A stretch of 64,000 nucleotides of DNA from assembly GCA_965223865.1 (NCBI GenBank), contig OZ245020.1, forward strand, positions 96,001-160,000, written 5' to 3'. Position 1 is the stretch's first letter; the number at the start of each line of letters is the position of its first letter. This DNA is from Nitrosarchaeum sp. GTDB lineage: Archaea; Thermoproteota; Nitrososphaeria; Nitrososphaerales; Nitrosopumilaceae. A program made the translations under genes and the position numbers. The notes beneath the pieces were generated by a model that saw nothing but the letters and a program-made list of their open reading frames with translations, had not been told where the DNA came from and ran no database searches. Shown one piece after another: positions 50,390 through 55,542 of the stretch.

Positions 50390-51880
50390 ATGCAATTATT
50401 TAATTGGAAACACGACACATTGACTATGATGAAGGAAGTTATTTTTGCAGTAATACTATTGTCTATATTTCCAGTAGCATATGCACAGGATTATCCAGAA
50501 TATGGGGTACGAGTAGAAACTGTGGCTGATAACCTATCAATTCCATGGAGCATTGATTTTGCTCCTGATAATAGAATATTTTTCACTGAGAGAACAGGAA
50601 ATCTTCGGGTAATAGAGGATGGTCAGGTGCTTCCACCAATAATGTCCCTTGATGTTGCAGGTGGAGAGGGAGGACTGTTAGGTATTGCCCTTGATCCGGA
50701 TTTTGAGGAAAATCATTTTCTTTATCTATATTTTACATATAACGAATTTTTTGAAACAAAAAACAAGGTTGTAAGATATGTTGAATCTAACAGTTCTCTT
50801 AGAGAAGATAAGACAATTCAGGAACCTTTTGCAGGGGCCTCATACCATGATGGTGGTAGGTTAAAGTTCGGACCTGATGGAAAACTATACATCACAACAG
50901 GGGATGCAGGAAATCCAGACGCATCACAAAATAAAGAAACGGTTGTTGGAAAAATTCTCAGAATAAATTCAGATGGCACTATTCCTACTGATAATCCATT
51001 TGGAACTGCAGTTTATTCATGGGGTCACAGAAATCCGCAGGGCATAGACTGGGATGCAAATGGTAAAATGCTTGCAACAGAACATGGTCCATCTGGATGG
51101 AGAGGAGTAGCACATGATGAAATCAACGAGATTCTTCCTGGAGGCAACTATGGATGGCCCGACATTATAGGTGATGAGAAAAAGCAGAACATGATAAATC
51201 CGATATTGCATTCAGGGGATGATACATGGGCTCCATCTGGAGCTACATTTTACTATGGTGAAAAAATTCCACAGTGGACTGGAAAGTTTTTTGTTGCAAC
51301 ACTTAGAGGAGAACACCTTCACATGATATCTTTTGAACAAAATGAAATTTCATCTCATGAAAAATTATTTCTTGGAGACTATGGCCGACTACGAGATGTA
51401 GTAGAGGGTCCTGATGAATATCTTTACTTGCTTACAAGCAACAGGGATGGACGTGGCAGTCCTGAAGTAAATGATGATAAAATTCTAAGAATTGTGCCAA
51501 TTCCAGTTATTAACAGTTTTGAGCAGTGTGTTGATGCAGGAAATCCCGTAATGGAATCATACCCAAGACAATGCAGAACACAAGATGGAAAGCATTTTGT
51601 CGAGGATATTTCAAAAATTCCAGACTGGGTAAGGAAAACTGCAAAATGGTGGTCTCTAACACAAATTTCTGATCAGGACTTTGCATTGAGTCTTGAATAT
51701 CTCATAAATCAAAGAATCATCATAATTCCAAAAGAAACAGCATCTGAAGGCAATCCAGAATCACAATTACCTTCTTGGCTTCGAGAAAATGCAGGATGGT
51801 GGAGCCAGGAATTGATAGATGATGATGAATTTTTCAGAGGAATCCAGTGGATGATAAATAATGGATTTATCAAAATCTAG
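50390..51880 (+). CDS. PQQ-dependent glucose/sorbosone dehydrogenase with C-terminal 'W...AxWW' modules
   Basis: GGLLGIALDPDF, HDGGRLKFGPDG, GHRNPQG, GNYGWP, GRLRDV. Confidence 0.88.
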   Translation: MQLFNWKHDTLTMMKEVIFAVILLSIFPVAYAQDYPEYGVRVETVADNLSIPWSIDFAPDNRIFFTERTGNLRVIEDGQVLPPIMSLDVAGGEGGLLGIALDPDFEENHFLYLYFTYNEFFETKNKVVRYVESNSSLREDKTIQEPFAGASYHDGGRLKFGPDGKLYITTGDAGNPDASQNKETVVGKILRINSDGTIPTDNPFGTAVYSWGHRNPQGIDWDANGKMLATEHGPSGWRGVAHDEINEILPGGNYGWPDIIGDEKKQNMINPILHSGDDTWAPSGATFYYGEKIPQWTGKFFVATLRGEHLHMISFEQNEISSHEKLFLGDYGRLRDVVEGPDEYLYLLTSNRDGRGSPEVNDDKILRIVPIPVINSFEQCVDAGNPVMESYPRQCRTQDGKHFVEDISKIPDWVRKTAKWWSLTQISDQDFALSLEYLINQRIIIIPKETASEGNPESQLPSWLRENAGWWSQELIDDDEFFRGIQWMINNGFIKI

Positions 51881-52263
51881 ATGCTAGCCTGATTTATTCT
51901 CCTTTGGGATAGGCGGAATATGGATGAATACAACTTGTCTTTTCTTTCTTAGACGAAACATAAAACCAATAATACAAAATTTGGTTATAAAGCTCAAGTA
52001 GGAGTTATCTTTTATCCATTTGAGATTTTTTTCTTTCAGCAAGAAATGATTACTTTGATTGCATTCCTGCAACAATTACTAAAAGAGCCAAAACTGCAAA
52101 ACAGGTTCAGAAAAATTAAGACTTGAAAACTTGCATTTGCAAAAAAGTGTCAGAAAAGATCATAATTTTCTAGTACAACCGTAGAATGTACCAATTCCTT
52201 TTTTATCAGAAATGACTAAACCCAAATACTAACAGGCTGTTCACGTCGTTTATCTTGCCAAAA

Positions 52264-52675
52264 ATAACCTGACCAGTTATCTGCCTGACTGCAACGAGGA
52301 GTCATTCTAATGCAGTCAGGTACATTCATCAAATGTACCAATTGTGTTTATAATCTTAATTTAGCAGTAAAGATGTCTGTACAAGTCATCTCATGGTTGT
52401 ATGAAGACATCCCAACTATACAACCAGGGTATTTTTCATAATACTCTCCCAGAAATATTACAAATTCCTTCAACTGCAAATACAAGGCCGGAATGTAATT
52501 TCTTAGTTAAGGATCTCCTTTTTATTTTGGTACGACCTATATTATATAGAAAGCTGACACAATCTCCTATTGTCAAAAGTTGGCGATTGTTTACCGGTCT
52601 GAGCATAAAGGCAGGGCTGCGTAAAGGTTGTTCCGCACTAGTCAGCTTTCGAATTTTTACTGAATGTAAGTTAAT
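52264..52675 (-). ncRNA. Candidate large structured ncRNA with pseudoknot
   Basis: At least 7 stems of 7-14 bp and a loop-tail pseudoknot; TTAAATAGC TATA at 52703-52695. Confidence 0.5.
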
Positions 52676-52778
52676 TTTTGAAGTTTATGATTAAGCTATT
52701 TAAGACTCAAAACACATCAAGCGATCAAAAATTAATTTTCACACCCCAGGCTAAATTAAGAATTTTAAATCAACTATC

Positions 52779-52943
52779 ATGAGTGAAATGCAGTTAGGAG
52801 ACAGGATAAAGATGGCACATACCATTAAGGTTAGAAAAGCAATGAGAAGAAATCTAGCACTTGAAGTAAGCTGGTATGATGTTCATGGAGAATCTCACAC
52901 ACAAGAATTTTCAGTTAAAGAAGGTTCAACAATAGAGTTTTAA
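52779..52943 (+). CDS. 54-aa hypothetical microprotein (not in ORF track)
   Basis: MSEMQLGDRIKMAHTIKVRK...EGSTIEF*; T-rich terminator follows. Confidence 0.65.
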   Translation: MSEMQLGDRIKMAHTIKVRKAMRRNLALEVSWYDVHGESHTQEFSVKEGSTIEF

Positions 52944-53066: not shown

Positions 53067-53222
53067 ATGGCAAAACGCATTACAATAATGTTAGACGACG
53101 ATTTGGTCACAAAGATAAGACAAAAACAAGCAAAGATGATTCAAAAAGAAAACAAATCTGTCAGTTTCTCAAAGGTAATAAATCTGATTATAGAAGATTC
53201 ACTAAAAAAGAAAACTAGTTAG
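53067..53222 (+). CDS. Ribbon-helix-helix-like microprotein (not in ORF track)
   Basis: MAKRITIMLDDDLVTKIR...SVSFSKVIN. Confidence 0.7.
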   Translation: MAKRITIMLDDDLVTKIRQKQAKMIQKENKSVSFSKVINLIIEDSLKKKTS

Positions 53223-55180: not shown

Positions 55181-55354
55181 CTAGGAACGAGATTTTGTTC
55201 TGAGTATGGCACTGCAACATGGACATCTGACTGAATTAACATCCATAAACAGTCCACAGAATGTGCATCTCTTCTGGCCAAGTGAATACCTTAAACCATT
55301 TCTTACGGGCTTGCCTTCAAACTGATAGCAAAGTCCTCTACAGCTTCGAGCCAT
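55181..55354 (-). CDS. Cys-rich zinc-finger microprotein
   Basis: MARSCRGLC...KRCTFC...RCPCC..LRT. Confidence 0.75.
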   Translation of the reverse strand: MARSCRGLCYQFEGKPVRNGLRYSLGQKRCTFCGLFMDVNSVRCPCCSAILRTKSRS

Positions 55355-55542
55355 TAGAGACTTCCCCTTATCAATGAATTGTGGCAGCAGGGACATCTAT
55401 GATATTTTGAGATTAGGTAATCATCACATACTGAGCACCACTTTTTGTAAATAGAAGTGCCTGATTTTCTAAATGATGCATCTGCTTGATAATACTTGCA
55501 AATGTTAGAACAGAAATTTGTACTCATATCGCTTACCTCCAT
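55354..55542 (-). CDS. Cys-rich zinc-finger microprotein, paralog of the neighbour
   Basis: CSNIC...KWCSVC...RCPCC. Confidence 0.7.
   Translation of the reverse strand: MEVSDMSTNFCSNICKYYQADASFRKSGTSIYKKWCSVCDDYLISKYHRCPCCHNSLIRGSL

Follow-up and report, generated by a model that had tools for sequence, protein, structure and literature searches.

A candidate family of small structured RNAs in Nitrosarchaeum and related Nitrosopumilaceae

Within the 64,000-nucleotide (nt) window analysed here (positions 96,001 to 160,000 of contig OZ245020.1, assembly GCA_965223865.1, from Nitrosarchaeum sp.), we propose, at a probability of about 60%, that positions 52549–52650 constitute a stand-alone gene for a small structured RNA of ~105 nt, whose family is uncatalogued in Rfam 15. 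That a real noncoding RNA (ncRNA) gene lies here on the plus strand is, on the comparative evidence, very probable, and it is only slightly less so that the RNA would act in trans rather than as a leader of a neighbouring gene. Together, the alignments described below point to a new family of small structured RNAs in part of the Nitrosopumilaceae, with solid comparative support. The locus came to attention through an earlier note, which had proposed a ~400-nt ncRNA on the minus strand spanning 52264–52703; the present analysis corrects that feature in both size and strand. All coordinates are positions in the window, on the plus strand unless stated otherwise.

The extent of the RNA was delimited by comparison with 61 related genomes. 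BLAST searches with 52200–52760 matched eight of these, including the window's own genome (referred to as G000), and the full length was matched only in a sister species of the same genus (G004; 88% identity). In the remaining five genomes of the genus, and in a single genome from a different genus, the match was limited to ~52507–52659, so that this segment is shared by all six relatives within the genus and extends to one genus beyond it. Because conservation beyond G004 is confined to this segment, the proposed 400-nt unit dissolves into a core of ~105 nt and a conserved box directly upstream of it. Analysis of the eight sequences with RNAalifold yielded two helices with compensating changes (P1 and P3), plus one long-range helix that is discussed further below. 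A covariance model containing only P1 and P3 (R1) gathered 36 copies from six genera (alignment A6), on which a fuller structure with two additional helices (P1, P2, P4 and P3) was subsequently tested. In A6, 95.0% of 1054 helix cells were paired and 19 of the 31 pairs changed on both sides; on four of five measures none of 500 shuffles scored as high, and slid controls reached only 28–43% pairing. The model with all four helices (R2) then provided 48 genome copies (alignment A7; 94.9% of cells paired, 23 of 31 pairs changed on both sides) and 80 metagenome copies, of which 64 were distinct (alignment A8; 96.5% of cells paired).

The predicted fold is a three-way junction, composed of a closing P1, a P2 hairpin and a long P4–P3 arm (Table 1). 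In A6, the ten pairs of P1 were formed in 96.6% of cells, with five pairs changing on both sides and G·U variants occurring in one further genome (G001), while the 12 pairs of P3 were formed in 98% of cells, with nine changing on both sides. The two helices that had been left out of R1 behaved similarly, with P2 being paired in 87.8% of cells (two of five pairs changing on both sides in A6, and three of five in A7) and P4 in 90.5% (three of four pairs). Moreover, divergent members folded singly by minimum free energy (MFE) recovered the same P2 hairpin and P4–P3 arm. In the 48-row alignment, near-invariant nucleotides were found in P1 (AAGCUGAC/GUCAGCUU), on either side of P2 (CAC and GUC), in the internal loop between P4 and P3 (GU and AAAGG), in the P3 loop (UAC) and directly before the 3′ strand of P1 (UAG), and the P2 loop was rich in pyrimidines, most genera having CC there. 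When all column pairs of A7 were scanned for tertiary or pseudoknot pairs, only the known helices and G·U-tolerant noise emerged.

Two observations assign the RNA to the plus strand. Firstly, the helix cells comprised 157 G·U against 27 A·C combinations, the fold accounting for 94.9% of cells on the plus strand versus 85.7% were it located on the minus strand. Secondly, a promoter-like box, with GGATCTCC at the position of a transcription factor B recognition element (BRE) followed by a TATA-like motif, precedes P1 on the plus strand at a near-fixed distance of 22–24 nt. In the BLAST alignments of the eight genomes, this box shows up as an invariant block, GGATCT(C/A)CTTTTTAT, ~25 nt 5′ of the near-invariant block running from GAAAGCTGAC to GTCAGCTTTC. 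Across the wider family, TTTWT was found between –35 and –16 from P1 in 41 of 48 genome copies and in 61 of 65 distinct metagenome copies. The longer GATC..TTTWT arrangement was carried by 29 of the 48 genome copies, ending 22–24 nt before P1 in 26 of them, and by 51 of the 65 metagenome copies, ending at that distance in all 51. In archaeal promoters, the usual spacing between TATA box and start site fits a start at or just before P1, and because of this match in spacing the box would act as the promoter of the RNA. At the level of the motif, the hallmark of a stand-alone archaeal small RNA gene, being a promoter of its own at a fixed distance from the 5′ end, was thus found. The transcript is predicted to run from ~52546 to ~52658.

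With R2, the RNA was found in 39 of 151 sampled Nitrosopumilaceae genomes, or in 31 of the 115 that were at least 90% complete. These belong to eight of the 27 sampled genera of the family, namely g1 (6/6 genomes), g22 (9/9), g17 (8/9), g21 (2/2), g3 (5/7), g13 (4/9), g20 (3/9) and g24 (1/9). None of 127 genomes from 19 other families of the order yielded a match; these genome searches used the stricter filters of Infernal, so that negatives stand for RNAs not found in the genomes searched. A strict pattern furthermore matched at least 101 metagenome contigs, and R2 confirmed all 80 of the matches listed (69–117 bits). Genomes carry one to four copies. The window's genome harbours a second copy at G000:C1:862993-863111(-), which scores 91 bits, is preceded by the same promoter box, and has a compensated P2 (ACUGU/ACAGU) as well as a compensated P4. 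A candidate third copy, AGAAGCTGACACA at ~C1:1030445(-), emerged from a scan for the promoter motif and was rejected, as it lacks the family fold and was missed by R2.

Table 1. Features of the candidate RNA locus and its surroundings (window coordinates)
Feature	Position	Strand	Details
RNA core, P1 to P1, 102 nt	52549..52650	+	R1 138 bits, R2 115 bits; covariation; MFE z –3.40
Promoter-like box	52511..52525	+	GGATCTCC at BRE position, then TTTTTAT (TATA-like); ends 23 nt before P1
T5 run, candidate archaeal oligo-T terminator	52654..52658	+	3 nt past P1; sequence read
P1 5′ strand	52549..52558	+	GAAAGCUGAC; pairs with 52641–52650 (GUCAGCUUUC)
P2 hairpin	52559..52573	+	ACAAU 52559–63, loop CUCCU 52564–68, AUUGU 52569–73
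P4–P3 arm	52584..52630	+	P4 CGAU 52584–87 with GUUG 52627–30; also GG 52582–83 with CC 52633–34
P3	52591–52600 with 52614–52624	+	inner GC/GC 52603–04/52611–12; apical loop AUAAAG
Inverted repeat	52284–52293 / 52311–52320		CCTGACTGCA / TGCAGTCAGG; confirmed in sequence
Inverted repeat	52319–52326 / 52332–52339		GGTACATT / AATGTACC; confirmed in sequence
Inverted repeat	52394–52402 / 52418–52426		TGGTTGTAT / ATACAACCA; confirmed in sequence
Loop and its complement	52405–52411 / 52372–52378		AGACATC / GATGTCT; confirmed in sequence
Inverted repeat	52549–52558 / 52641–52650		GAAAGCTGAC / GTCAGCTTTC; confirmed in sequence; the later P1
Long-range pair	52365–52371 / 52656–52662		CAGTAAA / TTTACTG; confirmed in sequence
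TATA of the earlier note	52695–52703		GCTATTTAA; reads TTAAATAGC on the minus strand; confirmed in sequence
Remnant, 3′ end of ArsR-type membrane regulator gene	51903..52097	-	DNA match to G005 and G002, 74–76% identity
Two-species element, not part of the conserved RNA	52197..52436	+ (putative)	present only in G000 and G004

The RNA did not correspond to any catalogued family. When the whole window was scanned with the 4227 models of Rfam 15, only three transfer RNAs (tRNAs) reached the gathering score, and the flagged region remained below that of every family; even at E-values up to 10, its best match was csRNA, with 26.9 bits against a cut-off of 57. The same scan on 20 diverse family members produced a single noise match (11.4 bits versus 86.7). 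The earlier view that an uncharacterised structured ncRNA is present, and that it is not an RNase P, signal recognition particle (SRP), transfer or ribosomal RNA, therefore holds, given this blank in Rfam and the strong covariation. Indeed, the archaeal RNase P RNA (RF00373) and SRP RNA (RF01857) of the genome are encoded elsewhere, at G000:C1:1697181-1697459 (191 bits) and G000:C1:235214-235525 (114 bits), respectively, and neither model matched the flagged region. A C/D-box or H/ACA guide RNA was rejected upon inspection of the 48-row alignment by eye, with no dedicated scanner, which revealed no conserved RUGAUGA and no tandem G·A beside a 3-nt bulge; the three nucleotides past P1 vary among GAA, AAA, AUA, AGA, CAG and UAA. 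A protein-coding role was likewise discarded, as each reading frame stays open in at most 9 of the 47 distinct copies. For the overlapping 97-amino-acid (aa) open reading frame (ORF), no conservation at the protein level was seen; neither this ORF nor a 43-aa ORF belongs to a Pfam family, and tblastx of 51880–52560 against the window's own genome gave self matches only.

Y RNAs, which serve as scaffolds of Ro ribonucleoproteins (RNPs), resemble the present RNA in measuring ~100 nt, in having their ends joined in a long conserved stem and in containing internal loops, and their function is carried by the bound protein. Unlike Y RNAs, the present RNA has a three-way junction rather than a stem-loop-stem layout and no match to an Rfam Y RNA model, and it occurs in a genome without a TROVE (Ro) domain: PF05731 had no matches in this genome, which is 99.98% complete, the control search having detected the domain in 2 of 14 known genomes.

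As to how the RNA might work, transcription would start from its own BRE/TATA-like box, at P1 or 1–3 nt 5′ of P1, and would end near the T-run past P1. The transcript would then fold into the closing P1, a short P2 hairpin capped by a loop rich in pyrimidines (CC), and an extended coaxial P4–P3 arm bearing the near-invariant GU/AAAGG internal loop and an AUAC-type apical loop, and would act in trans via this fold, either as part of an RNP or as a specific protein-binding (protein-sequestering) RNA. Frozen junctions combined with compensating helices are typical of RNAs recognised by their shape, while antisense regulators conserve just a single-stranded seed. Here, P3 and P4 drift by compensation, whereas the sequences of P1, of the junction and of the internal loop hardly change. 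On this ground we tentatively prefer a mode in which a protein recognises the fold (a protein-bound or RNP mode), at somewhat less than even odds.

Several points weigh against this account of the gene and its function. The transcript, along with its two ends and its abundance, is a prediction, and the protein-binding mode is read solely from the pattern of conservation, no partner protein and no co-occurring gene having been identified. Only about half of the copies carry a T-run: counted from the last eight positions of the model match, a T4 run occurs within 28 nt in 29 of 48 genome and 30 of 65 metagenome copies. This makes the 3′ end the weakest part of the gene model. Regarding the fold, A7 and A8 are biased towards the proposed structure, because their alignment followed the model in which it is contained, and the independent covariation in A8 is small, with 102 of 500 shuffles reaching the observed nine pairs changed on both sides. 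As the sequences are related rather than independent, such shuffle counts are not probabilities. Finally, the family fold of the window copy has a predicted energy of –27.3 kcal/mol, versus –35.4 kcal/mol for the MFE structure of the single sequence.

Another possibility, though a rather doubtful one, is that the RNA would be a trans-acting antisense regulator, in which the P2 loop (CUCCU in this copy; most genera have YCC), possibly together with the AUAC loop of P3, pairs with purine-rich stretches of target mRNAs. By analogy with bacterial small RNAs (sRNAs) with C-rich loops, the rest of the fold would then merely display these loops. The CC of the P2 loop in most genera and in both paralogs of the window's genome is in line with this, as are the stand-alone gene with its promoter-like box and the occurrence of multiple paralogs in a genome, a trait of many sRNA families. 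However, the well-sampled genus g22 mostly carries UUUUCAC loops in which CC is missing, the conserved unpaired stretch spans just 3–5 nt, and the helices and junctions are more conserved than is usual in seed-type sRNAs. Moreover, Shine–Dalgarno-like 4-mers precede only 251 of the 1358 long ORFs of the genome, in a crude count that has no chance baseline. Stand-alone regulatory sRNAs have reportedly been described in archaea such as Methanosarcina and Haloferax, and the present RNA resembles these in being encoded by a gene of ~100 nt with its own archaeal promoter, located between unrelated genes and sometimes accompanied by paralogs. Unlike them, it has a far more elaborate and more conserved fold, and no similarity in sequence or model was found.

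In the MFE structure of the window copy, a long-range helix (52559–52567/52583–52591) takes the place of P2 and P4, with which it is mutually exclusive, exceeding the family fold in stability by 8 kcal/mol. This helix could be formed in all seven genomes of the genus and partly in genus g22, but nowhere else, and in the RNAalifold analysis of eight sequences the one from another genus broke it in four of eight pairs. It is either a chance effect of the repeated AUUGU or a conformation peculiar to the genus. Speculatively, the RNA might be the first representative of a new class of functional RNAs in ammonia-oxidising archaea that depend on their shape, as an aptamer-like sensor or the core of a novel RNP, and in this genus it could toggle between P2 plus P4 and the long-range helix as a free-standing, trans-acting riboswitch-like switch; this extension seems unlikely.

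An improbable alternative holds that the RNA is free-standing and senses a ligand or processes itself (orphan aptamer or ribozyme), perhaps switching between these same two conformations. The architecture invites the comparison, as purine and thiamine pyrophosphate (TPP) riboswitch aptamers are three-way junctions as well, in which P1 joins the 5′ and 3′ ends, the junction or internal loop is near-invariant, the helices vary by compensation and a T-run may directly follow P1. The greater stability of the alternative helix in the window's genus would also agree with switching. Nevertheless, that helix is not kept in other genera, no Rfam riboswitch or ribozyme model matched at E-values up to 10, and inspection by eye revealed no conserved cleavage-site motif. 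In contrast to riboswitch aptamers, moreover, the RNA has its own promoter-like box at P1 and is not followed by a constant gene.

This last point also bears on the very improbable option of a leader or riboswitch acting in cis on the 54-aa ORF further downstream (52779–52943), which is located on the same strand 128 nt past P1 and is well conserved in G004 (97–99% identity in its bins at 52800–52900, and 93% in the 52700 bin). However, the RNA and this ORF are set apart by the T5 run and by a distinct, conserved A/T-rich block (52707–52742), and no copy of the ORF accompanies the second RNA copy of the window's genome. Elsewhere the next gene differs or is convergent: in 14 of 35 loci, the first ORF of at least 60 aa past the RNA runs on the opposite strand (13 loci when the 54-aa ORF of the window counts as the next gene). 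Where the next ORF is on the same strand, it falls into at least 12 unrelated clusters, including MFS, Zn-ribbon, DLH, HAD, DUF72, AsnC-type and eIF2-beta proteins. Since the neighbouring genes differ between loci, a stand-alone gene is indicated rather than a leader.

The 54-aa ORF itself belongs to no Pfam family. The A/T-rich block that precedes it also occurs in G004, G005 and G006. In G004, the block is found again, with 94% identity, at a distance of 76 nt from an additional RNA copy and in divergent orientation.

The least credible option is the model of the earlier note itself, being one ~400-nt minus-strand ncRNA with an H-type pseudoknot, or a remnant resembling the omega RNAs of mobile elements. 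All the inverted repeats on which it was built were found when the sequence was read directly, 52200–52440 is unusually well conserved between G000 and G004, and the 440-nt interval folds better than dinucleotide shuffles on both strands (plus strand: z = –3.70, none of 100 shuffles equalling its MFE; minus strand: z = –2.18, 2 of 100). Strong folding was also observed for the core (z = –3.40 on the plus and –2.38 on the minus strand) and for twin hairpins at 52280–52345 (–4.08 and –3.47). While the local repeats are thus real, they do not make up one 400-nt structured unit, since the conserved part ends at the core and 52264–52500 is missing in five of the six other genomes of the genus that do keep the core. 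The region of the pseudoknot hairpin (52360–52430) folds within chance (z = –1.55 and –1.04 on the plus and minus strand, with 18 and 28 of 200 shuffles equalling it), and its arms are identical between G000 and G004, which renders that comparison uninformative on the pseudoknot. Folding of the region (52445–52510) around a supposed bulged 14-bp stem at 52451–52503 is at chance level as well (z = –0.41 and –0.35), and the long-range pair meant to close the structure gains a mismatch in G004 on either strand. The strand evidence given above likewise favours the plus strand.

A relation to omega RNA or HEARO RNAs of IS200/605 elements would agree with the location of a structured ncRNA within a gene-poor gap. 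Unlike at such elements, no TnpB or IscB gene adjoins the RNA or was found genome-wide (no PF07282 match in the genome or among the neighbours, the control having detected this TnpB-type domain in 8 of 14 known genomes), no HEARO-type Rfam model matched, and the RNA keeps its chromosomal context within genera at one to four copies per genome. A link to viruses or mobile elements was also rejected on the searches made: a pattern based on P1 matched 19 viral contigs, but none of these matched R2, so that they represent chance inverted repeats. A 27-nt piece of the upstream hairpins had no viral matches.

In oceans and soils, few microbes are as abundant as ammonia-oxidising archaea, which drive the first step of nitrification. 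A full-text literature search returned no description of the present RNA. It could be included among the groups of marine small RNAs that Shi et al. reportedly described in 2009. In the excerpts considered, a review cites that study (PMC8049014), another paper deals only with ncRNAs of other marine groups (PMC5069720), and a third names only the SRP and RNase P RNAs as ncRNAs of ammonia-oxidising archaea (PMC13475601); the "conserved noncoding RNA" of a fourth (PMC3043068) is RNase P RNA according to its supplement. To the RNase P and SRP RNAs named in these excerpts, our analysis would add a conserved and covarying small RNA with its own promoter-like box. It may provide an entry point into the RNA-based regulation or RNP biology of ammonia-oxidising archaea, and alignments A6, A7 and A8 can be used as seeds for a family definition.

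The neighbours of the RNA comprise a glucose/sorbosone dehydrogenase (GSDH), an ArsR/FilR1-type regulator and small ORFs. In sister genomes (locus L206; G005), an intact 231-aa ArsR-type gene is located directly upstream of the RNA, its orthologue in G001 matching Pfam HTH_5. In G000 and G004, most of this gene has been replaced by ~450 nt of unrelated sequence, leaving only the remnant listed in Table 1; at the protein level, tblastn aligned residues 202–225 to 52026–52097 with an in-frame stop, a weak match (E = 0.23). The two-species element within this replaced region contains a TATA-like CCTTTTTTAT (52197–52206), hairpins at 52284–52320, 52319–52339 and 52394–52426, and a T5 run (52432–52436). 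Between G000 and G004, 52200–52400 is 94–97% identical, compared with 76–82% in flanking non-coding bins and 89–95% in the coding bins at 50800–51800, and the one stem substitution in G004 (C to U at 52339) yields a G·U pair on the plus strand. This element may be a second small transcript, confined to the two species.

Both RNA copies of the window's genome are situated amid small multi-copy genes (C1:861998-864855 for the second copy; 53067–53222 and 55184–55396 in the window). These include a Zn-ribbon family of ~22 paralogs, three of which lie within 2 kb of the second copy, and a 51-aa family of eight paralogs with no Pfam match, which we take from inspection to be ribbon-helix-helix proteins and which has one member 520 nt from the first RNA copy and one 855 nt from the second. 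Neither family was accepted as a partner, because both have many paralogs and, in other genera, neither is found close to the RNA. Upstream of the RNA, five C/D-box snoRNA models weakly matched 51813–51894 on the plus strand (13.6–21.4 bits, E = 0.23–3.1). In the alignments, AUGAUGA is seen towards the 5′ end, GGAUGAU internally and CUGA towards the 3′ end. The segment may encode an archaeal C/D-box guide RNA that overlaps the end of the glucose/sorbosone dehydrogenase gene (50390–51880).

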